Positions 34,558 to 53,735 of a DNA stretch of 64,000 nt are shown one piece after another. A program made the position numbers and the translations under genes. The DNA comes from Sneathiella sp. (GTDB taxonomy: Bacteria > Pseudomonadota > Alphaproteobacteria > Sneathiellales > Sneathiellaceae): NCBI RefSeq assembly GCF_002706985.1, contig NZ_PAKP01000027.1; one strand, written 5' to 3'. Each line of letters starts with the position of its first letter. Position 1 is the stretch's first letter. Under the pieces are notes generated by a model. The model saw only the letters and a list, made by a program, of their open reading frames with translations, made no database searches and had not been told where the DNA came from.

Positions 34558-34563
34558 AAATTC

Positions 34564-38076: not shown

Positions 38077-38810
38077 TGAGTTTTTACCTAATGCACCGGG
38101 GCTGGATGGATAATCCAGCCTTCCGAAACGAACCCTACAACCGGCGCGACGCATTTTGCTGGCTGATAGAACATGCTGCATTCCGGGACGGCGTAACAGT
38201 ACCGCTTCCAATGGGGGATATTACGCTGAACCGGGGGCAGCTAACCTACTCCACCAGATACCTCGCGCAAGCGTGGAGATGGACCGAACCGCGCGTCAGA
38301 AGGTGTTTAAAGTTGTTTCAAAGTCGATCCATGATTGAACTTGAAACCGACGCAGGGCAAACCGTCATAACCATTTGTAAATATGACGATTATCAGGACG
38401 CCAAGCGAGTTATCGACGCAGCAATCGACGCAGCAGCGACGCAGGACCGACGCAGCAGCGACGCAAATAAGAAAGAAGGAAAACCCTTAAAACCCTTAAA
38501 TGATGATGTTAACGGGGCAGGCTACGCCTTTGCGGGTAAAATTATCCGGCTCAATCAAGCAGATTTCAACCGGTGGGAAGAAGCCTATCAATCTATCCCG
38601 GATTTAAAGGCAGAGCTTACAGCCCTTGATGATTATTTCCACACTCAGAATCCAAAGAACTGGTTCGCGGCGGTATCGGGCGCACTCAAGAAACGCAACA
38701 ATCAATATCTCGACGGGAAAAAGCAACCAGCCCACAAGATGACGGATGCCGAATATAACCGTTTGCACAGCGACCTAGTGACCTCCAATCCGATGGGAGG
38801 CGCGCAATGA
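38076..38810 (+). CDS. Phage replication initiator-like protein (lambda O-like) with internal iterons
   Basis: MSFYLMHRGWMD...LNRGQL...LAQAWRW N-terminus; internal CGACGCAG repeats; upstream of the helicase. Confidence 0.7.
   Translation: MSFYLMHRGWMDNPAFRNEPYNRRDAFCWLIEHAAFRDGVTVPLPMGDITLNRGQLTYSTRYLAQAWRWTEPRVRRCLKLFQSRSMIELETDAGQTVITICKYDDYQDAKRVIDAAIDAAATQDRRSSDANKKEGKPLKPLNDDVNGAGYAFAGKIIRLNQADFNRWEEAYQSIPDLKAELTALDDYFHTQNPKNWFAAVSGALKKRNNQYLDGKKQPAHKMTDAEYNRLHSDLVTSNPMGGAQ
38414..38466 (+). repeat. Five CGACGCA(G) iterons at 11-12 bp period, candidate origin
   Basis: Copies start at about 38414, 38426, 38437, 38448 and 38459, followed by an A-rich tract. Confidence 0.7.
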
Positions 38811-40498
38811 CCAGAGACATTAGCGAACGGCTGGCGGATCAGGGTATCAGGCTCAAGGACTATGCGGCGGGCGAGCATGCCACACTCTGCCCGGAATGCA
38901 GCCACAACCGGAAAAAGAAAACCGATCCCTGCCTGAGTGTTAAGATTGACGGCGAAGGCGGAGCCACTTGGATCTGTCATCACTGCGATATGGTCGGCAA
39001 TGTTCCCTGCATCGAGAAACCATCAAAATGGAAGCGGCCAGCCTTGCCGGAGAAACCCAAAAGGTCAGAGTCCATGTATGACTGGTTTAAGGGACGGGGT
39101 ATATCGCGGGCAACTGTGGACGCGGCGGGATGCTTCGCCACAGAGGAATATTACGGGCCGGAAAAGAAAAGCTGCATTGCCTTTCCCTACCGCCTGGACG
39201 GCAAGCCGGTTAACGTGAAGTACCGGACGCGGGACAAGCAATTCAAGCAGACACAGGGAGCGCAGCGGACCCTTTACAACATCGACAATGTGACCGGAGA
39301 CGAGATCGTTTTCGTTGAGGGTGAAATGGACGTTCTGGCTTTATGGGAAGCCGGAATAAAAAACGCGGTCAGCCTGCCGGATGGAGCGCCGAAGGAAGCC
39401 AAGTTCAGGGATGACGACAAGCGGTTTGAAGCCCTTCGTAACTGCCTGCCGAAACTGGAAGGCGTGAACAAGGTTATTATCGCGACGGATTCAGACGGAC
39501 CGGGGGAAGCCTTGGCGGCAGAACTGGCGCAACGTTTCGGGAAAGACCGTTGTTGGCGGGTGGATTGGGCGGAGCTCAAAGACGCTAATGCCGCCTTGCA
39601 GGCATGGGGCGCGGAATCCGTGCGCAATACTGTCGAAGAAGCCGAGCCATGGCCGATTGACGGGGTTTACCGATTCGAGGATTTTGGAAACGCGGTTCTC
39701 GATATGTATCACGGTCGCGGGCCACAACCTGTCAGGATCGGCATAGAAGGGCTCGACGACTTTTACAGGGTAATGCCGGGCACCTTCCATATCGTGACGG
39801 GTATACCCAACCACGGGAAATCAAACTTCCTCGAGCAGATCACCATGACGCTGGCTGAAAAGCACGGCTGGAAATTCGGGATATTCTCCCCGGAACACAA
39901 GCCTGCGCAGTATGCCAGCCGCCTGCTTGAGAAGCATTTGAAGCAGCCGTTTTATGACGGGCCGAATCCGAGAATGACACCGGAGGAAATCACGTCAGGA
40001 CTGGAATATGTGAACCGGCATTTCTATTACATCACGAGCAACGACCATACGCCTACGATTGACTGGATACTTGAGAAGGCGCGGCTCTCCTGCCTCAAGT
40101 ACGGCATCAAGGGGCTTGTGATTGATCCATACAACGAGATCGAGGCCGGACGGGAGAAGAACCAGACGGAAACGGAGTTTGTCAGCCAGCTTATCTCGAA
40201 GATCAAGCGGTTCTGCCGGACGCATGATGTGACGGTCTGGGTTGTGGCGCATCCGGCGAAGATGCACAGGGACCTGAACGGCGACCAGCCCATGCCGGAC
40301 CTTTACAGCATTTCAGGGTCCGCGCATTGGTTCAACAAGGCTGACATGGGTCTGATAGTCCACAGGAACTTTGAGGAAAAGACAACCGCCGTTGCAATCA
40401 ACAAGGTGAAGGAACAGCCAGCATGGGGCGGCACAGGCAAGCTCACGTTCTGGTTTGACGGTGCACACAGGATTTACAAGCCATCCGGCGCATTTTGA
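38807..40498 (+). CDS. Bifunctional primase-helicase (T7 gp4/Twinkle-like)
   Basis: CPEC...CHHC zinc finger, TOPRIM VEGEMD / ATDSDGPG, Walker A GIPNHGKS, VIDPYN and WFNKAD. Confidence 0.9.
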   Translation: MTRDISERLADQGIRLKDYAAGEHATLCPECSHNRKKKTDPCLSVKIDGEGGATWICHHCDMVGNVPCIEKPSKWKRPALPEKPKRSESMYDWFKGRGISRATVDAAGCFATEEYYGPEKKSCIAFPYRLDGKPVNVKYRTRDKQFKQTQGAQRTLYNIDNVTGDEIVFVEGEMDVLALWEAGIKNAVSLPDGAPKEAKFRDDDKRFEALRNCLPKLEGVNKVIIATDSDGPGEALAAELAQRFGKDRCWRVDWAELKDANAALQAWGAESVRNTVEEAEPWPIDGVYRFEDFGNAVLDMYHGRGPQPVRIGIEGLDDFYRVMPGTFHIVTGIPNHGKSNFLEQITMTLAEKHGWKFGIFSPEHKPAQYASRLLEKHLKQPFYDGPNPRMTPEEITSGLEYVNRHFYYITSNDHTPTIDWILEKARLSCLKYGIKGLVIDPYNEIEAGREKNQTETEFVSQLISKIKRFCRTHDVTVWVVAHPAKMHRDLNGDQPMPDLYSISGSAHWFNKADMGLIVHRNFEEKTTAVAINKVKEQPAWGGTGKLTFWFDGAHRIYKPSGAF

Positions 40499-40509
40499 GA
40501 GAGGACAGT

Positions 40510-41238
40510 ATGAGCGTAAAGACGAAAGACAAGGTAGATGAAGACCTGCGAAAGCTTGTGGGGGATTTGAAAGAGGAATCGGAGAAAGATTTTACGCACA
40601 TCGAGTTACGGCGGGACCGCGTTGACGAAATGCCGGAGCGGGCGCAGGAACGGCTGAGCAAGATATTTGACGACGAAATAGCCTCGCCGGTCATCAAGGA
40701 CGCAAACGATGGCGCGGGCCTCGGCATTTTCTACAATGACGACGAAGAGTTGGGTTTACTGGCGCTTATATCAACGTTCGGCGTCACCTATGGTGATTTC
40801 ACTGTGCAGCAATTAAATGGTCTATTGCTGGCGTCTGGAACGGCCAAGGACAACAAGGAAGAACTTGGAAAAAAGGCGTCGGCGGACATCAATATTGTAG
40901 CGGCGCTTGAGCCAAGGGATGCGGTCGAAAGTATGTTGGCTGTGCAGATGACGGCAACGCACCGGGCAATAATGAAAGCAGCCCAACAGCTCAACCACGC
41001 GGAAATGCTTGACCAAAGCAACAGCGCTGCAAACCGGATGACGAAACTCATGAATGTTTACACCCGGCAGGTTGAAACTCTCAACAAACACCGGGGCAAA
41101 GGCCAGCAGAAAATGACGGTCGAGCATGTTCACGTCAACGAAGGCGGGCAAGCAATTATCGGAACCGTCGAGGGAGGGGGCAGGGGTAATTCAAAAAAAG
41201 GAGGACAACCCCATGCAGCGTTGCGGAGCAAAGACTAG
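40510..41238 (+). CDS. Conserved island hypothetical protein
   Basis: ESMLAVQM...HRGKGQQKMTVEHVHVNEGGQAIIG, a pattern I associate with genes next to HGGxSTG genes. Confidence 0.65.
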   Translation: MSVKTKDKVDEDLRKLVGDLKEESEKDFTHIELRRDRVDEMPERAQERLSKIFDDEIASPVIKDANDGAGLGIFYNDDEELGLLALISTFGVTYGDFTVQQLNGLLLASGTAKDNKEELGKKASADINIVAALEPRDAVESMLAVQMTATHRAIMKAAQQLNHAEMLDQSNSAANRMTKLMNVYTRQVETLNKHRGKGQQKMTVEHVHVNEGGQAIIGTVEGGGRGNSKKGGQPHAALRSKD

Positions 41239-41446
41239 AACGGGCGAACCGTGCAAGACCTGGGCAATGAAAAACGGCAGGTGTCGGATGCATGGCGGGA
41301 TGTCGCCCGGAGCGCCAAGGGGGCCGCGCAACGGGAACTATCGGCATGGCTTCTATACGAATGAGGCTATAGCTGAGCGGCGACAAATGTCGGCATTCAT
41401 TCGAGACATGCGGGAGGCGCTAGATGGCACGTCCCACGAAGTATAG
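41213..41446 (+). CDS. HGGxSTG-domain protein
   Basis: CGAKTRTGEPC...GRCRMHGGMSPG; AAGGAGG RBS. Confidence 0.8.
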   Translation: MQRCGAKTRTGEPCKTWAMKNGRCRMHGGMSPGAPRGPRNGNYRHGFYTNEAIAERRQMSAFIRDMREALDGTSHEV

Positions 41447-41822
41447 GCCGGAAATGCAGGATGAGATTATATCCCTGATGCGGGAAGGGGCGAGTATTCA
41501 AGAGGTATCGGCGGCGCTCGGTATATGTCGGTCTAGTCTGTATAATTGGAAGCGCCAATATCCAGAGTTTTTAGACACCATAAAAAGGGGAGAAACCTAC
41601 TCACAGGCGTGGTGGGAACGGCAGGGGCGGCTAAACCTTTGGAATCCTCAATTCAACTATCGTCATTGGTTCCGGCAGATGTGCAACCGGTTTGGCTGGC
41701 GGAATAATATCCGAAGGCGTAACGGCGAACAGCATCGGTTTGCTTTAATCCACGACAGACCAATGACAGAGGATGAATGGCTTGTCAGATATTCAGGGCA
41801 CAATGGTGGACCTTCGCTCTAA
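41424..41822 (+). CDS. Terminase small subunit-like protein
   Basis: MARPTKYRPE...LGICRSSLYNWKRQYPEF...SQAWWE...NRFGW, a podovirus TerS-like pattern. Confidence 0.75.
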   Translation: MARPTKYRPEMQDEIISLMREGASIQEVSAALGICRSSLYNWKRQYPEFLDTIKRGETYSQAWWERQGRLNLWNPQFNYRHWFRQMCNRFGWRNNIRRRNGEQHRFALIHDRPMTEDEWLVRYSGHNGGPSL

Positions 41823-41930
41823 TTCTGCTGGCTTTTCTTATTGCTCTCGTTCTGACCGACTCGCTGGCAAGTTGATAAATTCCTAATATACATTATGATA
41901 TGAATGCGTTTTGGATACCGGAGGACTGTC

Positions 41931-42290
41931 ATGCGGCTTTCAATTCCTTACAGTTTCTACTTGGTTCTTTTTACGGCGTTATGCTGGCTTCCAATTGCAG
42001 CGGCCCAATCTTCGACTGTATCGCTCGCCGATATGGTTGCGGCCTGCAAAGTGGATGCCCGACCGGCGACAGGTCAATTTGTATGTGATGACTCAGTTGG
42101 AGCAGCGGGTGACGCCATTGAATCAAAGTGCGTTACACTTCGAATGACAGGCAAAATTAATTGTGACGCTACCGGCCCGTACGCCGAAACCCTCACCAAA
42201 TTTATGAGTATGTGCAAGTGGGCTGATGATCCTGTTTTCAAGGACAGGCTGGGCAATCCCATGAAGGGTAAGGGCGTTGAGTGCAACTAA
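41931..42290 (+). CDS. Secreted Cys-containing hypothetical protein
   Basis: GGAGG RBS, signal peptide ending AAA/Q, several Cys. Confidence 0.55.
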   Translation: MRLSIPYSFYLVLFTALCWLPIAAAQSSTVSLADMVAACKVDARPATGQFVCDDSVGAAGDAIESKCVTLRMTGKINCDATGPYAETLTKFMSMCKWADDPVFKDRLGNPMKGKGVECN

Positions 42291-42595
42291 TCAAGCCCAA
42301 CTGACCTTATAATAATCCGCGCCACCCTGCCCGTTTCCATATGCCGCAAGCCGGGATTTGGCTCCGATAGCGCCCTCATAAATCGCCGCGCCAGTTGCGG
42401 CCCTTTCTCGATAGTCTGGCTTATCTCTTCCAGCGCCTTCTCTAGTTGGCGGCTTCTTACATCCCGGCGCGCGCAATCCCGTGCCGCCCGTTCGATAACA
42501 GACAGCATTCTTTGAAGCTGGTCTTTATCCACCAGTTCTTCCGACCAGTTGCCGCCAAAGGAGACATTTCCGAGTTGCTTTTTCTTTTCTGTCAT
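42287..42595 (-). CDS. Hypothetical protein divergent from the Y-family polymerase
   Basis: MTEKKKQLGNVSFGGNWSEEL; start lies 2 bp from a LexA box. Confidence 0.6.
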   Translation of the reverse strand: MTEKKKQLGNVSFGGNWSEELVDKDQLQRMLSVIERAARDCARRDVRSRQLEKALEEISQTIEKGPQLARRFMRALSEPNPGLRHMETGRVARIIIRSVGLD

Positions 42596-42597
42596 GA

Positions 42598-42612
42598 GAA
42601 CAAAGAGAGAAC
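42598..42612. promoter_or_regulatory. Alphaproteobacterial LexA (SOS) box
   Basis: GAAC-AAAGAGA-GAAC, a perfect GAAC-N7-GAAC between divergent genes. Confidence 0.85.
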
Positions 42613-42647
42613 ATTTGCTGTCATTTTGCAAGACGGATTTTTATGCC

Positions 42648-43844
42648 ATGACGCCCATGCGGTCCCTTTATGTTGATATGAATAGCTTTTTTGCGAGCAT
42701 CGAGCAGCAGATTGATCCGGCACTCAGGGGCAGGCCCGTTGCGATAACGGCAATTGATAATGAATCAGGGGCTTGCGTTGCGGCAAGCTATGAGGCGAAG
42801 GCATATGGCATCAATACCGGCACCCGTATCTATGCCGCAAAAGAGCTTTGCCCCGGTATTATCTTCCGTCCCTCCCGGCATCGGCTGTATGTCCGGGTTA
42901 ATCAGAAAATCGCCCGCGTCATTGATGAGATAGCGGAATTGGAGTTTGTCCGCTCCATTGATGAATTCCAGGTGGCGCTGGGTGGAAAGACATCGGAACT
43001 TGAGGCGGCGCTGGATCTGGCCCGCAACATCAAGGCCGCGATACGGGAAAGGGTCGGCTCGGAGCTTCGCAGTTCCGTTGGCATCGGTCCAAACCATTTG
43101 CTGGCAAAGATAGCGGGGAAGCTGGAGAAGCCGGACGGCCTTAAATGGCTCGCCCCTGAGAACATGCCGGACGCTATCAGGCATCTCACCCTTGATGATT
43201 TACCGGGCATTTCAAAGGGCATCAGGGGAAGGTTGTACGATGCCCGGATATACGACACGACGGCGCTCTACAGGCTGGATCCGCGCCATGCCCGGATGAT
43301 TTGGCATTCGGTGGAGGGAGAGCGGTTTATAAGAGCCTTGCAGGGCATGGATATCCCGCTGATGCCAACCAAGCGGAATGGCTACGGGAACTCAAAGGTG
43401 CTGGCCCCGGTTCACCGTCCGCCGCACAAGGCAAAGATGGTCGGGCGCTGGCTGGTTGAGAAGGCATCGGAGCGGATGCGAAGGGATGGCTATTGTACCC
43501 GGCATTTTGACCTTTCACTGCGCATGACTGACGGCCCGCGCAATGCAGGCAAGAAGATAACGGCAACACGGGATACACGGTTCTTGCTCTCGATCTATGA
43601 GGGGCTATGGAGAGACATCCGCCGTCGCAGCAACGGGGATGTTTTGTCGATTACCGTTCACCTTGGGGACTTGATCCTGCTGACGGAGCGTAACGGCGAC
43701 CTGTTTGCGCCCCTCTCGCCGGGAATGCCAAACGAGCCCGAAAAGCTCGCAACCGTTATTGACCATATCAACCGCCGTTTTGGGGAGCGAATGGTGAAGT
43801 ATGGAGAGCATCAGGACCACCCGGGGTTCTTTGAGAAGGGTTAA
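42648..43844 (+). CDS. Y-family DNA polymerase (DinB/UmuC-like), catalytic residues intact
   Basis: YVDMNSFFASIEQ, AASYEAKAYGI, SIDE and SVGIGPNHLLAKIA. Confidence 0.92.
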   Translation: MTPMRSLYVDMNSFFASIEQQIDPALRGRPVAITAIDNESGACVAASYEAKAYGINTGTRIYAAKELCPGIIFRPSRHRLYVRVNQKIARVIDEIAELEFVRSIDEFQVALGGKTSELEAALDLARNIKAAIRERVGSELRSSVGIGPNHLLAKIAGKLEKPDGLKWLAPENMPDAIRHLTLDDLPGISKGIRGRLYDARIYDTTALYRLDPRHARMIWHSVEGERFIRALQGMDIPLMPTKRNGYGNSKVLAPVHRPPHKAKMVGRWLVEKASERMRRDGYCTRHFDLSLRMTDGPRNAGKKITATRDTRFLLSIYEGLWRDIRRRSNGDVLSITVHLGDLILLTERNGDLFAPLSPGMPNEPEKLATVIDHINRRFGERMVKYGEHQDHPGFFEKG

Positions 43845-43928
43845 TGCGAGATTCTCGTAATTCCCTAAGAAAATAACGGCGTATCTCGGATCATGGCTTG
43901 TTGATTGCACCTCGGCAATTAAAGAGTT

Positions 43929-44573
43929 TTAGCCACCAGTAAGGTTTGTGCCGCCACCTCTCTTTCCCTTTGTGTCAACTTTTTTGAATTTACGCAACGC
44001 ATACGGAGGAGAGCAGTCGATATCGCCAATTCTGAATTTTTTATGCTCATGCAGGCATATACTCGTATCTCCTCCCCATACAATGTTGCCGCTATTTGCA
44101 TAATAGTAAAAATATCGGTTTGATGTTGATGGCGATAAGGTTTTGCATTTGCCTCGATTGATTACCCACCATCCCTCACTAATCCAATTTCCGTTGTTGA
44201 GATAAGATATTGCGATAGATACCTTTGGCTTGTTTGAATGATTGCAGAACTCCCAGTTTGTTCTAGAGGTCCCGTATATTTTTGGAGCTGGCTGCGCTTG
44301 AACATTTGTCTTTACCTCGTCATAAATCGCAATGGCGACTTCATGTCTCAAGTTATAAGAAATAACTGTGGCAAAGATGGAAACAGCAACCACTAAAAGG
44401 CGAAATATCAAGTTTCCAACAAACGCACCAACAGACGCCACAACCACGCCGCATATAATGACGCCAACAATATTGTCGGAGCCAAAAGTGATGGCACCAA
44501 AGCCCAGCCCAGCTATTAAGCCGATGAACCCTAACAAGCCTCCCAGTGGCGTCCCTTGTTCACTGCTTGCCAT
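43929..44573 (-). CDS. Membrane protein with C-terminal DUF1036-like domain
   Basis: N-terminal TM helices; FCNHS...SEGWWVI..GKC...YFYYYA. Confidence 0.7.
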   Translation of the reverse strand: MASSEQGTPLGGLLGFIGLIAGLGFGAITFGSDNIVGVIICGVVVASVGAFVGNLIFRLLVVAVSIFATVISYNLRHEVAIAIYDEVKTNVQAQPAPKIYGTSRTNWEFCNHSNKPKVSIAISYLNNGNWISEGWWVINRGKCKTLSPSTSNRYFYYYANSGNIVWGGDTSICLHEHKKFRIGDIDCSPPYALRKFKKVDTKGKRGGGTNLTGG

Positions 44574-44883
44574 AATGCCTTCTCGCCAAAGTAAACTTCA
44601 TATCAACTTCAGGTTTTATGTTCGGGCGGCTTTCTGGAAGAGTCAATAGCTATATTAATCGGGTATAGGATTTATCATATACCAGATAACTCAGTGTTTC
44701 TCAGTTGCGGTTTTCATTCCAGTTCGGCTGGTTTTGATATTTTTAAGAGAATAAGGCGAATTGTGGCCGACTTTATATGTTTTCATGAAGAGGGGTCATA
44801 TAGCTTGTTAACGCGCCCAAAATCCTGTAAGATGTACCTGTTATGTTCCGCCTGTGAAGGTCGAACAACCGAAAGGCCCATTG

Positions 44884-46092
44884 ATGGATATATTTACTTT
44901 ACCGGAACAGGTGGCGCTCGATGCAACGGGCGTCCCCTTGGCCGGGGCAAAACTGGAATTCTACCGCGCAGGCACATCGACGCCGGAGGATACCTACACC
45001 ACCGCCGCCCGAAGCGTTGCACACGCCAACCCGGTTGTTGCGGACAGCCAAGGCAGGTTTCCCGCAATCTATCTTGGCACTTCCTACAACTACAAAGCCA
45101 TTCTCAAAACCTCTGCCGATGTTATCCGGGATACACAGGACAACATTCCGGGAGCAGCTTTTGATGGGGCGCTTATCAAGGCGGGCACGGTGGCAACCGC
45201 CGCGCTTGCTGCAAAAGCCGTCACCTTTGACAAGATGGCGGACCTAGCGCAGGGGAGCGTGATTGTTGGCGGGGCATCCAACAGGCCAGCAACCCTTGAT
45301 ATTTCGACGAACGGCAAATTTCTAAAAGGGAACGGCACCACGGGGGAAATGGTTACGCTCCCTTATCCACCGGAATTCAAGACAGGCTGCGTTGTCACTA
45401 TCGGAACGGACACGGACCACGATCTTGATATTACGGCGGGGTATCTCCGGGATTCAACCAATTCAGTTAACATTACCGTTGCGGCTATGACAAAGCGCGG
45501 CGATGCGGCTTGGGCAGCAGGGACGGGCAACGGCATGATGCTGACCGGGACTATCGCAGGCGATACGAACTATGCCCTGTACGTGATTGCCAAGGCGGAC
45601 GGGACGCAGGATTTCGGGCTGCATACGTCTCTCACGGACCCATCGGCAGACCTACCCGCAGATTATGTTTACTACCGCAAAATCAAGCAGGTGCGGACGG
45701 ATTCAAGCGCGAACCTGTTGCAAGTCCCTGTGGAGGCTGGCGGCTATAACGAAATCACCTATCCAGATCAGACAATCACAGCGGCGGGCACCTTGTCGCT
45801 GGATCATGCGCTAGGGACGGCGGATGTTGAAATATACCTTTCCCTTGTCTGCCAGACCAACGAATACAATTACACGGCGGGCGATGTTGTTCCCATTCAT
45901 AATTCAGTTGTTGGCGATAGCGGCACGAACGGCGGCACCAATATCAAGGTCACGTCCAGCAATCTTTCCCTGAAATACAACAACACGTCAACGACCTTTA
46001 GCATTCACAATTTCAGCACCGGCGCGGCTAACGCGGGACTGACAAACGCAAGCTGGAAACTCCGCATTAAGGTAAGGGCAGCAATCCAATGA
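44884..46092 (+). CDS. Phage tail fibre/spike-like protein
   Basis: N-terminal GVPLAGAKLEFYRAGTSTP...NPVVADSQGRFPAIYL virion-attachment-like domain; Gly/Thr-rich beta-type body. Confidence 0.75.
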   Translation: MDIFTLPEQVALDATGVPLAGAKLEFYRAGTSTPEDTYTTAARSVAHANPVVADSQGRFPAIYLGTSYNYKAILKTSADVIRDTQDNIPGAAFDGALIKAGTVATAALAAKAVTFDKMADLAQGSVIVGGASNRPATLDISTNGKFLKGNGTTGEMVTLPYPPEFKTGCVVTIGTDTDHDLDITAGYLRDSTNSVNITVAAMTKRGDAAWAAGTGNGMMLTGTIAGDTNYALYVIAKADGTQDFGLHTSLTDPSADLPADYVYYRKIKQVRTDSSANLLQVPVEAGGYNEITYPDQTITAAGTLSLDHALGTADVEIYLSLVCQTNEYNYTAGDVVPIHNSVVGDSGTNGGTNIKVTSSNLSLKYNNTSTTFSIHNFSTGAANAGLTNASWKLRIKVRAAIQ

Positions 46093-46418
46093 CACCGACC
46101 CCCTTTGTAGACAAAAACGGCAACTATCTCGGCATCTTCACAAGCCCGCCCATTGGTGGCGTGGCTGTCCCGGAAGCACCGGACGACGCGCGGCAGGTAT
46201 GGACCGGCAAGGCATACGGTCCCGTCCCTGACAAGCCGCAGGAAGAGCAGGACTGGGAAGTGCTGGCCGATGCCGAAACGCAAGCTGAAATTCTGGTTGA
46301 GCTTTACAAGAACCTTGTGAAAGAGGGCGGAACTATCCAGCCGGACGCCATAGACACCACCGCCGCGGCGAAATTCGAGAAATTGAAAACAGCGGTTGAT
46401 AGAAAGGAAGCCCGATGA
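46089..46418 (+). CDS. Tail fibre assembly/chaperone-like protein
   Basis: ATGA-coupled to the fibre gene; FVDKNGNYLG...VPEAPDDARQVWTG. Confidence 0.55.
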   Translation: MTPTPFVDKNGNYLGIFTSPPIGGVAVPEAPDDARQVWTGKAYGPVPDKPQEEQDWEVLADAETQAEILVELYKNLVKEGGTIQPDAIDTTAAAKFEKLKTAVDRKEAR

Positions 46419-46603
46419 TTGAGGTTGAAATATCAGGCGAAACCGCGCCGGGAGTTAGGGTTATGGCGGATATTCCGGCGCATATGATTAGGGGCGATGC
46501 CAAGCCCTTTGTGAAGGCAACAACGGACCCTGTTAATGGGCGTTTCGGTTTTCGCTGCGAAGGACTTCCCGTTGGCGTGCAGTTTGTTGTTCCGAAGGAG
46601 TAG
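46415..46603 (+). CDS. Small hypothetical protein
   Basis: ATGA overlap; AGGAAG RBS-like sequence. Confidence 0.45.
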   Translation: MIEVEISGETAPGVRVMADIPAHMIRGDAKPFVKATTDPVNGRFGFRCEGLPVGVQFVVPKE

Positions 46604-46608
46604 ATACA

Positions 46609-46764
46609 GTGGAAAAAGCAACCTTTGACCGGCATATGCACTTACGCTTTACCCCGCAGCTCGCGGAGCGGGCGCAGCGATACGCAGCCGCGCAGGAAAT
46701 GAGCCTTTCGGAGTTTATCCGGCAGGCCATTCGCGAACGCCTGGACAACACGGAGGCGGCATAA
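46609..46764 (+). CDS. Ribbon-helix-helix (CopG-like) small protein, absent from the ORF track
   Basis: AGGAG RBS; GTG start; HMHLRFTPQLAERAQRYAAAQEMSLSEFIRQAIRERL; TAATG overlap with the next gene. Confidence 0.7.
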   Translation: MEKATFDRHMHLRFTPQLAERAQRYAAAQEMSLSEFIRQAIRERLDNTEAA

Positions 46765-46997
46765 TGGGGAAGTATGACAGACCCGGCATATTGCCAAAGT
46801 TCATCAAGCGCATTGTTGAGGCTGAGGATACGCCAGAGGGGGCAGTAAGCCGCATTACGAGTGCTTTGCCATATTGGTCGCTAGATGCCCTCAGACGCGG
46901 CGCAGAGGCCGACAAAGGCGAGTATCAGGATAAAGACTATCACACAAAGCTGGACCGCCTGATTGAACACACGGAAAAGCATAAATGCCAAGTATGA
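46764..46997 (+). CDS. Hypothetical protein
   Basis: Coupled ORF (TAATG and ATGA overlaps). Confidence 0.5.
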   Translation: MGKYDRPGILPKFIKRIVEAEDTPEGAVSRITSALPYWSLDALRRGAEADKGEYQDKDYHTKLDRLIEHTEKHKCQV

Positions 46998-47299
46998 GGG
47001 ACATTGCGGACGCGCCGTTTCACGACGCAATTAAGATTGTTCGAAGTCTTCCCCGTGAGCGTTGGAAGGAAGTCCGGGCTATCAACGAGTGGTCACTACA
47101 AGACGCGCTAAACACGCTTGCCATGGATTCAGAGGAATTTGAGCAGATATATTTCAATAATTTCCTGGCGTCATTGAATTACGAGAAAGAAGACATGCCC
47201 GGCCTTGAAAGGCCAGAGGATGAGAAAAGAGCCGTATTCCATAAACGCATTGATGATGCCATGCGTATCAGGGAAGTTTTAAATAGGATCGAGCAATGA
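46994..47299 (+). CDS. Hypothetical protein
   Basis: Coupled ORF. Confidence 0.5.
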   Translation: MRDIADAPFHDAIKIVRSLPRERWKEVRAINEWSLQDALNTLAMDSEEFEQIYFNNFLASLNYEKEDMPGLERPEDEKRAVFHKRIDDAMRIREVLNRIEQ

Positions 47300-48288
47300 A
47301 TAGCCTAGTACCGTTTGCCAAGCCAACATTCTACAGCTCCGGCCAGAACGCCCTGAATTTGTCGGGCAGAAAGCCAGTCAGGACGCCAAGCGGCATAAAG
47401 TTTTACACGCCGCCCACCACGCGGAATGCGCTCAATCCGAACAATCTGCAACCTATCGGAAGCAACAACCTGACGGCGAGCCAGAATGCTTTGACGCGGG
47501 CCTTTTATGACCGGGATTTAGGGGGTCAGTCACCGGGAGACACACCCGGCACCGGCGGCGATCCTAATCAGGGCGCGGGCGAGTCTGTTCCTGCCGCGCA
47601 GATGTCAACGCAAGACTTGGCGGATGAAGTCGGCCAGCTCGATGCCATGAACGATGTTGTTAGCGTCGGCAAGAGTCTTGGCCTTAGCTTTGGACCGGTA
47701 GGATTGTTTGCAGGGCTTTACAGCGCAGGCAAAAACAAACTGGACAACAGGCCGGAACTTGAGCAACGCAACCGCGACCTTGCCTTGCAAGGACTGGCAC
47801 CGGTCAGCCCAACGGAATTCAGCTTTGACCCGCAGATGTCAGATCAACAGATTGCGGACCAGAACAAGGAAATGCAGCGCAGCGTAACGGGCACAGATCA
47901 GGGCGAAGCGAGAAACGATCCCAATCCGGCCCCGTCAGGTGACCCCGGTGCAGGGCAGGGTGACACGGTAATCTGTTCAGAGCTTTACCGGCAAGGCATC
48001 ATGCCGCGCCATATCTGGGAAGCAGACGAACGTTTCGGCGACACGCTCGATAAATCCACGCTAGAGGGCTACCACAGGTGGGCAGAGCCTTGGGTGAGGG
48101 TTATGCAGCGTTCACCCCTTGCAACACGCCTAACGTGGCTTGTGGCGCGGCCTTGGGCCTATTATATGGCTTTCAAGATGAAGGCGGTTAAGGAAGACAA
48201 CGCAACGGGGCGGCTGTTGATGAAAATCGGACTTCCCTTGTGCCAGACTATAGGCAATCGGATTCAGCGACTTCAAACCTACCAATAG
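47296..48288 (+). CDS. Possible virion ejection/internal protein with C-terminal 'VICSELY' domain
   Basis: Low-complexity G/Q/N/P-rich body; C-terminal GDTVICSELYRQG...GYHRWA domain. Confidence 0.5.
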   Translation: MNSLVPFAKPTFYSSGQNALNLSGRKPVRTPSGIKFYTPPTTRNALNPNNLQPIGSNNLTASQNALTRAFYDRDLGGQSPGDTPGTGGDPNQGAGESVPAAQMSTQDLADEVGQLDAMNDVVSVGKSLGLSFGPVGLFAGLYSAGKNKLDNRPELEQRNRDLALQGLAPVSPTEFSFDPQMSDQQIADQNKEMQRSVTGTDQGEARNDPNPAPSGDPGAGQGDTVICSELYRQGIMPRHIWEADERFGDTLDKSTLEGYHRWAEPWVRVMQRSPLATRLTWLVARPWAYYMAFKMKAVKEDNATGRLLMKIGLPLCQTIGNRIQRLQTYQ

Positions 48289-48634
48289 TGTATTTAAACT
48301 GGTTCTCTTTGTGTATCAGAAAGTCGTAGCTGTACCCCTCTTTCATTTTATCCTTGTAGGGCGAGGTAGAGCACATTACTGGCGCGAAATTGGTTTTGAA
48401 CATTTCAGAAACAGTTTCGTGACTTAGCTGTGGCAAGTTCTCATAGCCAGCTGCAGAGGGGCTGATTTCATACCTTAAGTAAAAGGTTTTTGTGTCGTTT
48501 CTACCAGCCATATAGCGGATTTTCTCGCCTTCGCCGATAATGAGCGGGGTATCAAGCTGATGCCAGCGGAGGGCGGAGTCCGGGGCGGCGGTCGCACAGC
48601 CGGTCAACAGCAGGAAAAGCAGTAAAACTCTCAT
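48248..48634 (-). CDS. Hypothetical lipoprotein
   Basis: Lipobox LLTGC. Confidence 0.65.
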   Translation of the reverse strand: MRVLLLFLLLTGCATAAPDSALRWHQLDTPLIIGEGEKIRYMAGRNDTKTFYLRYEISPSAAGYENLPQLSHETVSEMFKTNFAPVMCSTSPYKDKMKEGYSYDFLIHKENQFKYTIGRFEVAESDCL

Positions 48635-48820
48635 TGGGCGTCCTTTCTCGTAAGGCGGTAATAAACATACATAGCCGCTGTGCCGAGGTAAACTATGGCC
48701 CCAAGACCAAAGAACAGTAGCACCGCTTGCCAAGCGGTGTATTGCATGCAGAAAACTTAGGTTGTTTCAATTAATTTCTTATACTATCTTGGGTGATTGT
48801 TAGCTTGTTGGGGATTATGT

Positions 48821-49300
48821 ATGAGGTGGTTTTTAATTATCGCATTGCTATTTCTGGTTAACTGCCAGGCCCCGCAAATTATGGCGCCAAAAGAGCAAAT
48901 TCCGGCAAAAGAAGCTTATCAAAAACATGACTTTGCAACCATAAAAAAGATGGCGGAAAGCGGTGACCCTTGGGGGCAGTTCTATCTTGGTTCGATGTAC
49001 GGTTCAGGTAACGGCGTTAGTAAAGATCTTTATAAGGCCGTCAAGTGGTGGAGTTTGGCCGCCAAACAAGGTAACGCTACTGCGCAATATAATCTTGGCG
49101 TTGCCAATGAATACGGAAAAGGCGCACCTCAAGACTTTCAAACTGCATATATGTATTACTATATAGCTGCTGAGAATGGCTCTCATCAATATGGAACGGC
49201 GCTCGACAGGGTGGCAAATAAATTGAGTAACATTGAGATAGCCGAGGCTAAAAAACTCGCCCATGAATGCCTCGATAATAAGAAACTCCTAAATTGCTAG
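48821..49300 (+). CDS. Sel1-repeat lipoprotein
   Basis: LVNC lipobox-like; GDPWGQFYLGSMY and GNATAQYNLGVA Sel1 repeats. Confidence 0.85.
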   Translation: MRWFLIIALLFLVNCQAPQIMAPKEQIPAKEAYQKHDFATIKKMAESGDPWGQFYLGSMYGSGNGVSKDLYKAVKWWSLAAKQGNATAQYNLGVANEYGKGAPQDFQTAYMYYYIAAENGSHQYGTALDRVANKLSNIEIAEAKKLAHECLDNKKLLNC

Positions 49301-49752
49301 ACTGGGTCAAACCATTAACTATTAATCCGCCCGCCGACTGACCGGTACAGGAGCGGCGGGAATGGGCTCATAATCAAATTAGCATGGCCTTGATGCTTAA
49401 AGAAATGCTAGAAAGAAATCGCCAGCTTGAATCAGTTGGCCAGGAAGCGGCTGCAGAAGATTCCCTGTCTTTATGGAAACGCCTTAAACCTCTCCACCTA
49501 TGTGCGGAACAGAATCATTGTTTAAATGGAACACAGACAGCCATAGCAGGTTTGCTGTCTGTGAATTGCCCCCAATATTCAAGCACTTCCTGAATCGCGT
49601 TTTTGCAGCTGGCCTCGTCAGAAAACGGGATATTTTCTATTGGTCCCTGTGCGTGAAAAGCTAGTATCAGTATCCAAGCATTAATATTTAACATTGATTA
49701 TTTTCCATCCCCCCTTATACCACATTACCCATAATTGGCTATTACAGGGCAC

Positions 49753-49778
49753 AAAAAAAAGGAGAGCCGAAGCCCTCC
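49753..49778 (-). terminator. Rho-independent terminator for the leftward early genes
   Basis: Minus strand GGAGGGCTTCGGCTCTCC followed by T8. Confidence 0.85.
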
Positions 49779-49800
49779 CCAAGTTGGAGAAATCTAACAG

Positions 49801-50121
49801 TTATGTGTAGTCATAGCCGTCTGGCAGGCATTTCACCAAAGGTACTCGTTGGTCTATCCCATACTCGGGCTCATAACCGGCGTGGCTGTATTGCTCCCTG
49901 TCGTGGCTGTCCTCAAGGTCGGTATCGCCGTCGATATGGTCAAGCATCGAGATAAGAACCTCTGAGAGGTCGCCAAGCGCCTCAGTAAGCCTTAGCGTGG
50001 CCTCTGCAGCGTCTTTGATTGTACCGGCGTTTTTATCGGCCCTAAGCGCGCACAGAGAGCGGTGAAGATTCCCGACCCTGCTTGAGGCCTGTTTGTCATA
50101 GCTTTCGATAAGTTTAGCCAT
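49801..50121 (-). CDS. Phage-type hypothetical protein
   Basis: Acidic DGDTDLEDSHDRE segment; co-oriented with the upstream gene. Confidence 0.55.
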   Translation of the reverse strand: MAKLIESYDKQASSRVGNLHRSLCALRADKNAGTIKDAAEATLRLTEALGDLSEVLISMLDHIDGDTDLEDSHDREQYSHAGYEPEYGIDQRVPLVKCLPDGYDYT

Positions 50122-50122
50122 A

Positions 50123-50533
50123 TCACGCCAGCCTTTCTATATCGGCGAATACACTCAGAAGAACCTTTTGGTTAACCGAGCTTTTCCCCTGAAAACATCC
50201 ATTGTTGAAGTTTTCCGGCATTTCCAGCCAACGGATTTTTTCACGTACACCGGCAAGGCTATCGGCGGGCGTATCTGCCAAGCCCTTTATTGCATCGTGT
50301 GCCGCGTCCATAGTGGCGCTTAGTTCTTCGTCAGTGTTACAAGCGGGATTATCCACCCAAGCGGAGCAGCGGGCATATTCCGCCACCATCTCAGCAATGG
50401 CCCGGTCATTGTTACCGGCAATGCTTGTCGATGGGATGAAAGGAACAGCGATAGCGGGAAGCATGGCCGCGCCCTTTAATGCAGAACGCCTATCGAATTT
50501 ACGGGATTTCGAGTCTATATGTAACTCAGTCAT
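50123..50533 (-). CDS. Phage-type hypothetical protein with RR leader
   Basis: AAGGAG RBS; DRRSALKGAA twin-Arg-like leader. Confidence 0.6.
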   Translation of the reverse strand: MTELHIDSKSRKFDRRSALKGAAMLPAIAVPFIPSTSIAGNNDRAIAEMVAEYARCSAWVDNPACNTDEELSATMDAAHDAIKGLADTPADSLAGVREKIRWLEMPENFNNGCFQGKSSVNQKVLLSVFADIERLA

Positions 50534-50658
50534 AGCGTGAAACTCCTTTTCAGTTTCCGTTGTGATTAGGGCCGGGTTGGTGGTGAGACACCTTCTCGGC
50601 CTGCTTTATTGCAATAATTCACTTGCAATATGACAAAATTATACATAGTATGTTATCT

Positions 50659-51120
50659 ATGTCAACACAGTATTATAATTTCATCACATCCCAGCAATGC
50701 CGAATGGCCCGCGCTGCATTGAATATCACCGTCCGAGATTTGGCAGAGGCAACCGGCCTGTCAGCGATGACAATCACAAGATTTGAAAACGGCAAGAACA
50801 AAGGAAGCCCCGATACGTTGCAAACAATTGCTGCTGCATTTCAGGGTCGGGGCATTGTTTTTATTCCAGCAGACGACGACCTTGGGCCGGGTGTGAGGCT
50901 CATTTTAGAAGATGGAGAGAAGGAAGCCATGCAGCCACAGACCTACGACCAAAAAACTGCCGAAATAATTTGCGATATTCTTAGTGACGGAACGCCGCTT
51001 TCGTCGGTCGCTCAAGACTCAACAATGCCAAGCCTATCAACAATCAATCGCTGGCGAAGGGAAAACAAATGGTTCCGCGAGGAAGTCATGAAATGGATGC
51101 GTCTGCGGGGCCGGGGGTAA
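50659..51120 (+). CDS. Xre-family HTH regulator fused to a small-terminase-like HTH domain (start uncertain)
   Basis: CRMARAALNITVRDLAEATGLSAMTITRFENG...GPGVRL, then YDQKTAEIICDILSDGTPLSSV...MPSLSTINRW. Confidence 0.8.
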   Translation: MSTQYYNFITSQQCRMARAALNITVRDLAEATGLSAMTITRFENGKNKGSPDTLQTIAAAFQGRGIVFIPADDDLGPGVRLILEDGEKEAMQPQTYDQKTAEIICDILSDGTPLSSVAQDSTMPSLSTINRWRRENKWFREEVMKWMRLRGRG

Positions 51121-51144
51121 GGATGGCGAATGTGTCAGTGATAA

Positions 51145-51263
51145 AATAGCAAAGGCCCCACCGAGGCGGGGCCTATATATTGACACTATACCGGATTGCA
51201 ATCTCCTCTGCATAGCGGCCTCCTAGGAGGACTCATGCCCGATGCCGAAGCAGAGCGGGAACA
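51145..51263 (-). ncRNA. Candidate small RNA downstream of the PemK/MazF toxin
   Basis: Minus-strand TTGTAA-N17-TATATT promoter (51297-51269), several hairpins and an intrinsic terminator (51153-51174). Confidence 0.45.
51153..51174 (-). terminator. Rho-independent terminator
   Basis: AGGCCCCGC-CTCG-GTGGGGCCT (fully paired only on the minus strand) followed by TTGCTATTTT. Confidence 0.75.
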
Positions 51264-51305
51264 TTCGTAATATACTGATTGCTGCGTTAAATTACAATTA
51301 AATTA

Positions 51306-51710
51306 TTATATACCCAGTGCATGTCTCACGCAGTTTTGAATTCTGGCAAGGTCGTCAGGCGTAATAATTCTTGTATCATATATACGTTTTCCGCTTGGTT
51401 CCTTACCTAAAAATGGCATGATTAAGCGCTGTAACGCAACGGTAACCACCAAATCTGCTTTAACCCACATTCTGGTCTCAATAAATGGTTCAGGAAGTGG
51501 TGTGCCAATGTCCAGCTCGCAATGGTAAGGCATAATTGGATCAGGTATCGAAGTACTCAACGGAACAACAGTGCATAAATCGGCTCTTTCTCTGAATCTC
51601 GGGGAAATTACAACCACTGGACGGCGCTTCACCATTTCTGGCGGAATAAAGGAGCGATTAAAATCGCAAATCACTATTGTTCCCTGAGCTGGGTGGATAT
51701 GAAGCGCCAT
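51306..51710 (-). CDS. PemK/MazF family toxin with no adjacent protein antitoxin
   Basis: GTIVICDF...PEMVKRRPVVVIS...LCTVVPLSTS. Confidence 0.88.
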   Translation of the reverse strand: MALHIHPAQGTIVICDFNRSFIPPEMVKRRPVVVISPRFRERADLCTVVPLSTSIPDPIMPYHCELDIGTPLPEPFIETRMWVKADLVVTVALQRLIMPFLGKEPSGKRIYDTRIITPDDLARIQNCVRHALGI

Positions 51711-51853
51711 TAGCTCACCATTAATATAAGTATATTGTCTGTGCTCATTAAATCACACGTTTAACATTCTTTGTGGAAAAACTCATTAATTTTCCACAAG
51801 ACAAACGCCCCGTACCCCGTTTAGGCTACTGCTTTTGAAAAAGCGGGGGAGAA

Positions 51854-52138
51854 ATGCCGCCCAAAGACAGCCCCAATAAAATATTGAATACACTTTGTTG
51901 CGACTATGATCTGGGAGAGGGTTCTGTAAATATCTCGGAAAAATTCGGTAGGCAAAGCGTGTTGTTTCAGCTTGATGTAATTGAAGACTGGATCGCGGAT
52001 TTGGAGTTTTATCGCGATACAGCCCTTGGCGGACCCTTTGATGATATCCTGGAAGAGATTTCAGAGCAGGATCAGGCGGAAGTTATTGACCTGGCATCTC
52101 GCAGGAAGGCGGAAAAAGAAGTAGATAATGAAGATTAA
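51854..52138 (+). CDS. Hypothetical protein
   Basis: GGGGGAG RBS; acidic 94-aa ORF. Confidence 0.5.
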   Translation: MPPKDSPNKILNTLCCDYDLGEGSVNISEKFGRQSVLFQLDVIEDWIADLEFYRDTALGGPFDDILEEISEQDQAEVIDLASRRKAEKEVDNED

Positions 52139-52215
52139 GGGGAGACGAATGGCTAGAAAGGTTAAACCAGCTTTGAGGGATGGTAACTGAGAGACATGAA
52201 AAAGTAAGAGCATTA

Positions 52216-52428
52216 ATGGCAAATTCAAAAATTGTTACAGAGGCCAAAATCAGACGCGTAGTTAATGCCATGCAAAAGAGTGGCCTAACCATTTCCGAGT
52301 GTATCATTACATCTACGGAAGTTCGGCTTTTATTCGGTGAGAAGGGGTCGAAAAAAGAAACGATTATTTATGACGGGGCCGAGCCGTGGGACGAAGATGA
52401 CGGGCTGGAACCATGGCCGACGCGATGA
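52216..52428 (+). CDS. Small phage-type hypothetical protein
   Basis: VTEAKIRRVVNAMQKSGLTI; start uncertain. Confidence 0.45.
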   Translation: MANSKIVTEAKIRRVVNAMQKSGLTISECIITSTEVRLLFGEKGSKKETIIYDGAEPWDEDDGLEPWPTR

Positions 52429-52474
52429 GGAGCCAGTTGAGATAGTATTATTTATTGCCGGAGACAAAAATTGA

Positions 52475-52738
52475 ATGAACGACAGAAAGCACTTTGCACA
52501 ATCAACCAATGTCCCAAAACCTCATTGGCCGCAGAATGTTCGGTCAATATCCGTCGAGGGGCTCGAAAATCTTGGCATTAGTGACAGCGGGGAGCTTTAT
52601 TGGGATGGCAAGCGCCTAAAGGTCGAAAATAAAGTTACATTAAATCTTTGGCAAAATACTTTGGCTGCTATTACCGCCGGTTCTGCGCTGGTTGTTGCTG
52701 CTGTTAGCGTTATTGCCTATATATGCCCGCCTCAATAA
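52475..52738 (+). CDS. Small membrane protein
   Basis: ELYWDGKRL plus a C-terminal TM helix. Confidence 0.5.
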   Translation: MNDRKHFAQSTNVPKPHWPQNVRSISVEGLENLGISDSGELYWDGKRLKVENKVTLNLWQNTLAAITAGSALVVAAVSVIAYICPPQ

Positions 52739-52956
52739 TGCCTCTCAAACCTCGCATTATTTCCGGTCAGGAAGCCGCCGAATATCTCGGTTATTCCGGA
52801 CCCACCGATGCTTTCAAAAAGTTCTGCCGTGAAATCGGTGTTAAGCCAATCAGGCGAGGGCGGTACGACATCCAACAAATTGATGCTGCTCTGGACAGTT
52901 TACTCGGGCATGATAAGAGGGATGATGAATGGCACAAAAGATTAAATCGGCTTTGA
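52738..52956 (+). CDS. Excisionase-like HTH protein
   Basis: ISGQEAAEYLGYSG...RYDIQQIDAALD. Confidence 0.65.
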   Translation: MPLKPRIISGQEAAEYLGYSGPTDAFKKFCREIGVKPIRRGRYDIQQIDAALDSLLGHDKRDDEWHKRLNRL

Positions 52957-52987
52957 TGACCCGAGACTTTTGAAAGGCGGGTGCAGT

Positions 52988-53512
52988 GTGTGGGACTTTT
53001 TAAAGGATTTTCAAACGGGGATAGTCGGGATACTGGGTTTCGCGGGTGTAATATTGACGTTGTGGTGGAACGCAAGACTCCAGCGTAAAAGCCGAGAGCA
53101 TGAAATTGAAATAGAACGGAAGGCGCTTCATATTGCGCTGCTCACTGAGCTGAACGTGGTTCATAAAATATTCTCGTACAATATACGAACACTGAGCGAG
53201 AACATGGAAAAAATGCGTATAGGGCAGAATTTGGGTGATCTTGCATATGGTTTTGATGAGCCCAGCCGAGTTTTCGACGCCAACATACACAAGATAGGCC
53301 TTCTTGGCCAAGAAGGAGCCGGAAAAGTTCTTTCAGCTTTTCTTCCGCTGGCAACAGTATCAAACCGATTGCTTTTATACGGCACACTTCACTCTAGTGG
53401 CCAGTCAGTTTTAATTGATCCGGCGCATATTCACTCTATTCATAATATGTACCAAGGGCACATTGGAAAGATTGAGGCGGCGACACGATGGTTATCCGAA
53501 CATCAAGAATAA
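52988..53512 (+). CDS. Membrane-anchored hypothetical protein
   Basis: N-terminal TM GIVGILGFAGVILTLWW followed by a helical domain. Confidence 0.6.
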   Translation: MWDFLKDFQTGIVGILGFAGVILTLWWNARLQRKSREHEIEIERKALHIALLTELNVVHKIFSYNIRTLSENMEKMRIGQNLGDLAYGFDEPSRVFDANIHKIGLLGQEGAGKVLSAFLPLATVSNRLLLYGTLHSSGQSVLIDPAHIHSIHNMYQGHIGKIEAATRWLSEHQE

Positions 53513-53593
53513 AATCTTGAGCTATTGCACCTATCGCACCAATTGCACGGGGTAATATCCATATAGAGATAAAGGCGTGAAATCTGCCCCGGC

Positions 53594-53611
53594 GGTCACT
53601 TATAGGTCACT
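53594..53611 (+). repeat. Probable integrase arm-type sites (2x GGTCACT)
   Basis: GGTCACTTATAGGTCACT is identical to 34729-34746. Confidence 0.75.
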
Positions 53612-53620
53612 TGTAAAGAG

Positions 53621-53651
53621 AAAGGGCCCAGCCGTTTCCAGCTAAGCCCTT
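53621..53651 (-). terminator. Element-supplied hairpin downstream of the tRNA
   Basis: Minus strand AAGGGCTTAGCTG-GAAA-CGGCTGGGCCCTT, a long stem with GU pairs. Confidence 0.6.
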
Positions 53652-53659
53652 GAAATTAA

Positions 53660-53735
<76 letters not shown>

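Follow-up and report, generated by a model that had tools for sequence, protein, structure and literature searches.

Type III toxin-antitoxin systems (ToxIN, CptIN and TenpIN) place an endoribonuclease toxin beside a gene for a non-coding RNA and have no protein antitoxin, and ToxI mimics allow some phages to escape ToxIN. Toxins of the MazF/PemK fold belong to the type II systems MazEF and PemIK (Kid-Kis); R29 and T52 are the catalytic residues of E. coli MazF, and the Rfam pemK motif describes a conserved RNA that accompanies pemK-family genes. The nearest published analogue with a structured RNA that is not a repeat array is AbiF-RCd22 of Clostridioides difficile, in which a structured, motif-bearing non-coding RNA binds and neutralises the toxic protein in cis and in trans (PMC12373285). 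Its authors liken the pair to type III RNA antitoxins; RCd22 carries two abiF motifs and is reported to down-regulate abiF expression at the transcriptional level (PMC12373285). Here we describe a 64,000-nucleotide (nt) stretch of a Sneathiella sp. genome (contig NZ_PAKP01000027.1 of assembly GCF_002706985.1), referred to as the window throughout, in which a gene for a MazF/PemK-fold protein is followed on the same strand by a small structured RNA gene. We propose that the two form a type III-like module of a MazF-fold toxin and a single, non-repetitive RNA antitoxin; the antitoxin activity is what we infer from the sequence comparisons below, and we give this reading a probability of about 0.6.

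The whole module lies on the minus strand. Past the stop codon of the toxin gene (51306-51710), the toxin strand carries in succession TTGTAA-N17-TATATT, GUUCCCGCUCUGCUUCGGCAUCGGGC, AUGAGU, CCUCCUAGGAGG, CCGCUAUGCAGAGGAGAUUGCAAUCCGGUAUAGUGUC, a 9-base-pair (bp) G+C-rich hairpin and UUUGCUAUUUU. The first of these elements is a predicted sigma-70 promoter (51269-51297 in the promoter scan; -35 box TTGTAA at 51297-51292, 17-nt spacer, -10 box TATATT at 51274-51269), from which an RNA of about 120 nt is predicted to start near 51262, some 7 nt past the -10 box, and to end in the U-tract (51142-51262). R1, the covariance model built here, matches the window at 51267-51139 with 118.7 bits and an E value of 1.9e-38. 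Helix P1 (51238-51259), defined by comparison with relatives, consists of CCCG/CGGG, an internal loop CUC/U and an inner 3-bp hairpin UGC-UUCG-GCA; its pairs are kept in 100% of cases, with C-G replaced by U-A and G-C in relatives. A conserved single-stranded linker, (A)UGAGU (51236-51231), which reads AUGAGU in the window and UUAAGU in the consensus, precedes helix P2 (51218-51232). The latter has the form G-U-CCUC (loop CUAG) GAGG-C, that is CCTCCTAGGAGG, and shows changes on both sides in four of its six pairs, one of which is A-U in 35, C-G in 19 and U-A in 18 sequences. Helix P3 (51184-51217) comprises an 8-bp stem with compensatory changes in six of the eight pairs and a short inner helix of 2-3 bp (GGA/UCC), with GATTGCAATC at its tip and an inner pair that is A-U in 41, C-G in 24 and U-A in 12 sequences. 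The inner helix closes a conserved 8-nt loop, GAUUGCAA (51203-51196), whose consensus GAWWSCAA is retained in the distant variants inspected by eye, e.g., that of locus L192. The intrinsic terminator found by the terminator scan (51142-51174) has a 9-bp G+C-rich stem at 51174-51153 followed by TTTGCTATTTT; all nine pairs covary among homologues, and the U-tract is present on the toxin strand only.

A preliminary description of this locus had recognised an orphan PemK/MazF gene without an antitoxin open reading frame (ORF) on either flank, and both the ORF listing and the 55-bit PemK_toxin match bear this out. It had also placed TTGTAA-N17-TATATT just past the stop codon on the same strand, where the promoter indeed lies (51297-51269) at a position conserved in 80 homologues, and its named hairpins (CCCG/CGGG with UGC-UUCG-GCA, CCTCCTAGGAGG and GATTGCAATC) correspond to P1, P2 and the tip of P3, all backed by covariation. 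Its terminator and strand assignment agree with the restriction of the U-tract and of the G-U pairs to the toxin strand. The alternative CUCUGC/GCAGAG pairing that it had suggested is not conserved, for GCAGAG is specific to the window, the consensus there is CAUACAnCGGAG, and no mutual-information signal accompanies it. A kissing interaction through a palindromic loop (GAUUGCAAUC) was considered and dropped: the palindrome is not conserved, variants such as AAUGCAAU, AAAGCAAU and AACCAAG occur in its place, and only GAWWSCAA is conserved. The palindromic character of GATTGCAATC is likewise not conserved.

The single-sequence folding energy of the RNA is unremarkable (z = -1.7 for the strand of the RNA, -1.1 for the opposite one), and the case for an RNA therefore rests on comparison with relatives, not on thermodynamics. 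The closest relative of the toxin, in another Sneathiella genome (locus L001), shares 68% protein identity; the block downstream is about 90% identical over 117 nt between the two loci, and the regions upstream of the toxin cannot be aligned. We gathered 80 genome loci with toxin homologues 43-68% identical, drawn from alpha-, beta-, gamma- and delta-proteobacteria, Chlorobi, Nitrospirae, Nitrospinota and Planctomycetes, and nhmmer located the block right past the toxin stop codon in more than 50 of them. A 35-sequence alignment (A3) yielded an RNAalifold consensus of 32 base pairs, 21 with compensatory double changes, so that the downstream covariation raised in the preliminary description was found in a region that is conserved. 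Paired cells amounted to 97.5%, against 86.6% in column shuffles and about 40% when the 3' partners were slid by 1-3 columns, and none of 500 shuffles reached any of the five observed pairing measures. Mutual information over 80 distinct sequences placed every top pair inside the predicted helices, with at least 91% canonical pairing among those, and gave no signal outside the nested helices and hence none for a pseudoknot. The frequent G-U pairs (e.g., columns 67/100, G-U in 21 of 35 sequences) occur on the toxin strand only, as does the U-tract, which fixes the strand of the RNA as that of the toxin.

Judged by this covariation, which supports P1, P2 and P3 over 35-80 homologues, the downstream block is a real, structured RNA family. 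It appears to be undescribed: Rfam 15 gave no relevant match to the window RNA, either at the gathering threshold or at E values up to 10, including the pemK motif to which the preliminary description had looked, and permissive thresholds returned only noise (rnk_pseudo, BSnc120, and RsmY on the terminator). Six variant loci likewise gave no Rfam 15 match at the gathering threshold, and the literature searched, subscription-only papers not being covered, yielded no description of a MazF/PemK toxin paired with such an RNA. A hidden coding function of the RNA is unlikely, because its sole ATG (51213) is not conserved and the substitutions track base-pairing rather than codon periodicity; no conserved ORF was found within it. 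Tandem Repeats Finder detected no tandem repeat at 50500-52300, and every alignment shows the RNA as a single unit.

The promoter is conserved together with the structure. Among the 80 homologues, 43 have exactly TTGACA as the -35 box and 70 agree with it at five or more of the six positions; 65 have a spacer of 17 nt, and in most the -10 box ends 0-3 nt ahead of the first position of the model. In homologues of 140 residues TTGACA forms Leu-Thr codons near the C-terminus of the toxin and the stop codon falls within the promoter spacer; in shorter toxins, including that of the window, the same promoter is intergenic. An overlap of the -35 box with the final toxin codons is the rule in most relatives. 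Selection therefore acts on the promoter itself.

The toxin and the RNA are tightly linked. R1 found the RNA beside the toxin in 155 of the 156 homologous loci with room for it, including all 79 genome loci that extend far enough, and the positive loci span alpha-, beta-, gamma- and delta-proteobacteria, Chlorobi, Nitrospirae, Planctomycetes, prophages and plasmids. A relative of the toxin is encoded on 84 viral contigs, the best 80 of which were kept as loci: 69 are new loci with the RNA, 7 are contigs of RNA-anchored loci already scored with R1, 3 end too early to tell, and 1 (L159) carries a reduced RNA. The latter, the lone locus without an R1 match, has its reduced RNA behind a promoter of the same type (TTGACT-17-TATATT). 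As in type III systems, the toxin thus always lies next to a non-coding RNA gene, and in checkable loci it was never found without one.

The gene order is less uniform. The RNA lies downstream of the toxin in nearly all loci; in five distant relatives (L192, L195, L203, L204 and L208; 38% identity) it lies upstream with its promoter and terminator, the ATG of the toxin following within about 10 nt of the U-tract in L192 and L203 and the start being less clear in L208. The E. coli plasmid p5217 (5.2 kb) has the RNA in convergent orientation, with a promoter TTGATA-16-TATAAT and a terminator shared with the toxin gene. The 11-kb Polaromonas plasmid pH8NP1 carries a standard module with an unannotated RNA of 108.7 bits, and a diverged module is present on elements, about 13-15 kb in size, that were deposited as Vibrio phages (order Vinavirales). 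The preliminary description had spoken of a single, downstream, non-repetitive RNA partner; single, non-repetitive, linked and equipped with its own promoter it is, and only the downstream position is not a defining trait, given the five relatives with the RNA upstream. Since the linkage persists in three gene arrangements, the RNA must act in trans, and from the loci compared we regard the linkage as obligate.

Three further loci deserve mention. In L043 two complete RNA copies (472-614 and 892-1025) follow one toxin gene, the only locus with two copies, and the viral contig L164 holds two complete toxin-RNA modules (4001-4560 and 7194-7762) about 3 kb apart. A 161-nt metatranscriptome contig (L027 3482-3511, run X21) contains a variant of the RNA with the 5' part GCUUUGGCAUCGGGCUGAAGUCCUCCUCGU; its length, near the predicted size of the RNA, hints that the RNA occurs as a discrete species in activated sludge.

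The protein encoded by the toxin gene has 134 residues and belongs to the 'YifN' subfamily of the MazF/PemK fold; its only Pfam match is PemK_toxin (PF02452), which scores 55 bits (cut-off 23.1; E = 1.1e-14). Its AlphaFold2 model has a predicted local distance difference test score (pLDDT) of 90.8, and in a Foldseek search of the PDB the top 50 hits were all of the MazF type (MazF, MoxT, YdcE and related endoribonucleases), with template modelling (TM) scores of 0.6-0.8. The best structural matches are the MazF proteins of S. aureus, M. tuberculosis and B. subtilis, sequence identity to solved structures is only 15-21%, and proteins of the subfamily are about 20-30 residues longer than classical MazF. 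The family-invariant R30 and S52 align onto R29 and T52 of E. coli MazF in the family profile alignment. With fold and catalytic Arg and Ser/Thr kept, the protein is predicted to be a MazF-fold endoribonuclease that looks active. PHROGs lists the family as phrog_15698 with function unknown. Its members form 374 clusters when grouped at 50% identity (E up to 1e-10), and its genes occur in at least 443 of about 185,000 species-representative genomes.

Upstream of the toxin gene are 143 nt of intergenic DNA without an ORF, followed by a divergent gene at 51854-52138 (+); downstream lies a convergent gene at 50623-51120 (+) for an unusual fusion of an N-terminal Xre-type helix-turn-helix (HTH) domain ending in GPGVRL with a C-terminal domain like the Sf6 small terminase. 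No co-oriented small ORF adjoins the toxin on either flank in the ORF listing of the window. The divergent promoter region contains a perfect 10-bp inverted repeat, TTGTGGAAAA-N9-TTTTCCACAA, at 51771-51799, which is 61-89 nt ahead of the toxin start; the window has a single copy (0 expected by chance) and the Sneathiella relative none, and the repeat could be an operator.

The converse of the linkage does not hold, as the RNA also occurs without an intact toxin. When the search started from the RNA, with a strict exact-block pattern, it identified 32 loci in genomes and 11 in viral contigs, among which the orphan fraction is no population estimate. Six of these RNA-anchored loci have no toxin in the stretch fetched; the RNAs of L091, L102, L118, L120 and L126 are structurally intact (104-114 bits) and that of L094 is decayed. 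In addition, L090 retains only the C-terminal 76 residues of the toxin and L117 a frameshifted toxin, each beside an intact RNA. Genes next to the orphan RNAs were screened for alternative toxins and proved unrelated (a GNAT, a small membrane protein, unknowns). The absence of toxins without the RNA and the presence of RNAs without the toxin together form the pattern of decay expected if the RNA is the antidote.

Three of the intact toxin-less copies are on viral contigs (L118 203-333, minus strand; L120 11022-11145, plus; L126 10380-10508, minus). L120 and L126 resemble temperate phages, the former with a CI-like repressor and the latter with a repressor, an integrase and RecT; the copy in L126 is near the CI-like repressor, and that in L118 abuts an integrase gene at the end of the contig. 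These copies could be decoy antitoxins or integration targets. The position in L118 would suit the idea that the block is a DNA-level element, an attachment (att) site or an origin, and no RNA at all, which we consider barely credible: compensatory changes preserve its pairing and G-U is tolerated on one strand only, a promoter stands at a fixed distance before it and a terminator with a U-tract after it, and the island that hosts the window module uses tRNA-Ala as its att site, which counts against the RNA block in that role.

A distant member of the toxin family is E. coli yifN, represented here by L087 2402-2961 (K-12) and L214 430-990 (O157:H7); of 5426 complete E. coli genomes, 4016 have this locus. 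In K-12 the gene is annotated as a pseudogene and is followed by TTGACA-17-GATAAT, a shortened RNA (P1, a CUAAGU linker and P2, without P3) and a terminator, about 100 nt upstream of ppiC. For O157:H7 one genome was checked, that of strain NE1127; its yifN is intact, codes for a 149-residue protein that shares 30% identity with the toxin of the window and retains the Arg and the Ser/Thr, and is followed by a reduced form of the RNA.

Some observations weigh against an RNA antitoxin. A regulatory RNA served by a non-toxic helper protein would leave the same asymmetry between RNA and protein, none of the PADLOC defence profiles matches the toxin, the RNA is one three-hairpin unit of about 120 nt and lacks the toxin-processed tandem 34-36-nt repeats by which known type III antitoxins are defined, and a protein candidate recurs at a few loci. 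That candidate emerged from an all-against-all clustering of the ORFs within about 1.5 kb of the toxin at 65 loci, in which no protein neighbour was conserved; the largest family occurred at 4 of the 65 loci, and most 'families' were spurious ORFs over the RNA. The sole recurrent real neighbour is a small Xre-HTH protein ending in GPGVRL, whose gene lies directly upstream of the toxin in L047 and L062 and overlaps its start in L159, and which is related to the N-terminal half of the 50623-51120 product of the window and to a gene in L001.

The first two of these points would suit a ribonucleoprotein in which a functional small RNA is served by a dedicated MazF-fold processing or chaperone partner that does not inhibit growth at natural levels. 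Strict dependence of the protein on the RNA and free-standing RNAs fit this equally well, and orphan RNAs with full scores (104-114 bits) suggest a function of their own. We nevertheless consider such a partnership unlikely, since in fold and catalytic residues the protein matches genuine MazF toxins, the layouts limit it relative to the RNA (through read-through or the internal promoter), toxin pseudogenes stand beside retained RNAs, and the module resides on small plasmids and prophages. The HTH genes raise a different prospect, an ordinary type II system whose protein antitoxin, an Xre-HTH or an unannotated small ORF, was missed and to which the RNA is unrelated; an 87-residue ORF upstream of the toxin on p5217 could be read in the same way. 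This is highly improbable, as only about 5 of roughly 150 loci have an adjacent HTH gene and neighbours of other families do not recur, conserved ORFs are absent from the RNA region, and the RNA is kept even where the HTH is present. Neither the window nor the 65-locus clustering revealed a cognate antitoxin gene in an operon with the toxin, and the HTH genes of L047, L062 and L159 leave a protein regulator a small probability.

The layouts themselves admit another explanation, namely that the RNA controls the synthesis of the toxin and not its activity, either as a type I-like or cis-regulatory 3' untranslated region or small RNA that lowers the stability or translation of the mRNA, or as a read-through attenuator. 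In the main layout the RNA is co-transcribed with the toxin with no terminator between them, in the upstream layout the terminator gates transcription of the toxin, and on p5217 the convergent RNA shares its terminator with the toxin gene. Set against these features are the conserved promoter of the RNA, its three orientations and its orphan copies, and its conserved unpaired nucleotides, which would seem to resemble a protein-binding surface more than an antisense seed. No conserved complementarity to the translation start region of the toxin was detected; the duplex energies were no better than those of shuffles (mean z = -0.3, 38 loci), which makes antisense control of toxin translation unlikely on sequence grounds. 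Overall we regard control of synthesis as quite unlikely.

The layouts favour the RNA over the toxin. In the main layout no terminator separates the two and the internal promoter adds RNA, so that each toxin transcript would carry one copy of the RNA in cis and the internal promoter would supply free RNA in excess; in the upstream layout the toxin would be made only by read-through of the terminator, with the same excess as a result. The RNA would bind the toxin dimer and block its RNA-binding groove, the likeliest contacts being the invariant unpaired elements, i.e., the UUAAGU linker and the GAWWSCAA loop. Provided that the RNA turns over faster than the toxin protein, a stop in transcription, loss of the element or shut-off of the host by a phage would let the RNA decay and free the toxin, and the outcome could be addiction to the element and/or abortive infection. 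The abortive-infection role that the preliminary description had envisaged for a 'satellite' is speculation.

A wider proposal follows, which we advance tentatively and at somewhat less than even odds: the YifN branch of MazF/PemK, including E. coli yifN, would be an unrecognised type III-like class in which a single three-hairpin RNA, with its promoter in the last codons of the toxin, neutralises the nuclease, and the stand-alone RNAs of temperate phages would be decoy antitoxins that disarm the toxin of the host. An RNA antitoxin, if confirmed, would explain 'orphan' MazF/PemK genes annotated as type II toxins without an antitoxin gene, and would widen type III beyond three ToxN-like families, whose RNAs are repeat arrays, to take in the best-studied toxin fold, MazF, together with a very different, non-repetitive RNA. 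The comparison also offers Rfam a new RNA family supported by covariation and provides a case of overlapping coding, with a promoter inside conserved C-terminal toxin codons. The module can be tested in E. coli.

The module of the window is contained in an integrative island of 19.1 kb (34550-53714) bounded by a 69-nt direct repeat that represents the 3' half of tRNA-Ala(GGC), with copies at 34550-34618 and 53646-53714 and a perfect core of about 50 nt; the tRNA-Ala(GGC) gene itself is at 53660-53735 on the minus strand. Elsewhere the module was found on the 84 viral contigs and on small plasmids. The island encodes an integrase (34706-35941) and has replication genes of phage type; its products include a DnaD-like helicase loader (37944-38810), a primase-helicase (38807-40498) and a Y-family polymerase (42549-43844), and no virion or structural phage genes were seen among its larger ORFs scanned. 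It may be a satellite-like element, and its gene content fits a role of the module in maintenance or defence without proving one.

Other features of the window were recorded in passing. A perfect 18-nt repeat, GGTCACTTATAGGTCACT, with two GGTCACT half-sites, occurs near each end of the island (34729-34746 and 53594-53611) and may provide arm-type binding sites for the integrase. A perfect sigma-70 promoter, TTGACA-16-TATAAT (12 of 12 positions; 50638-50665, minus strand), lies about 100 nt upstream of a gene for 136 residues at 50123-50533 (minus); this gene and that at 49801-50121 have syntenic counterparts at the Sneathiella locus L001. At the Rfam gathering threshold the window also contains a thiamine pyrophosphate (TPP) riboswitch at 4978-5082 (plus strand, 69.5 bits) and a manganese yybP-ykoY riboswitch at 28908-29016 (minus strand, 51.1 bits).

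Set beside the described systems, the locus combines traits of several. It differs from type I systems in that its RNA is not antisense to the toxin mRNA, being encoded on the same strand without overlap with the toxin. With the pemK motif it has in common a conserved RNA tied to pemK-family genes, although neither the pemK nor the abiF covariance model matches the RNA found here. AbiF-RCd22 differs in that its toxin is of the Abi_2/AbiD/F kind (PMC12373285), and neither this protein family nor its RNA motif has a match here. With MazEF and PemIK (Kid-Kis) the module shares the toxin fold and the conserved positions of the catalytic Arg and Thr/Ser, whereas its toxin belongs to a separate subfamily ('YifN', phrog_15698) and is accompanied by neither a MazE/PemI-type gene nor any other conserved protein neighbour. 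The differences from type III are that the toxin is a MazF/PemK protein (PF02452) and not ToxN/AbiQ, thus falling outside the ToxN, CptN and TenpN families, that no pseudoknot signal accompanies the RNA, and that the RNA in the window and in most loci is downstream, with its own promoter overlapping the end of the toxin gene. On the other side stand an apparent endoribonuclease toxin beside a non-coding RNA gene with no protein antitoxin, an RNA that would be made in excess, the order promoter-RNA-terminator-toxin of toxIN in five distant relatives, an occurrence on plasmids and prophages, and phage contigs bearing toxin-less RNA copies that recall the ToxI mimics. In function the module most resembles a type III system, one whose toxin is of MazF/PemK ancestry and stands without the protein antitoxin of type II.

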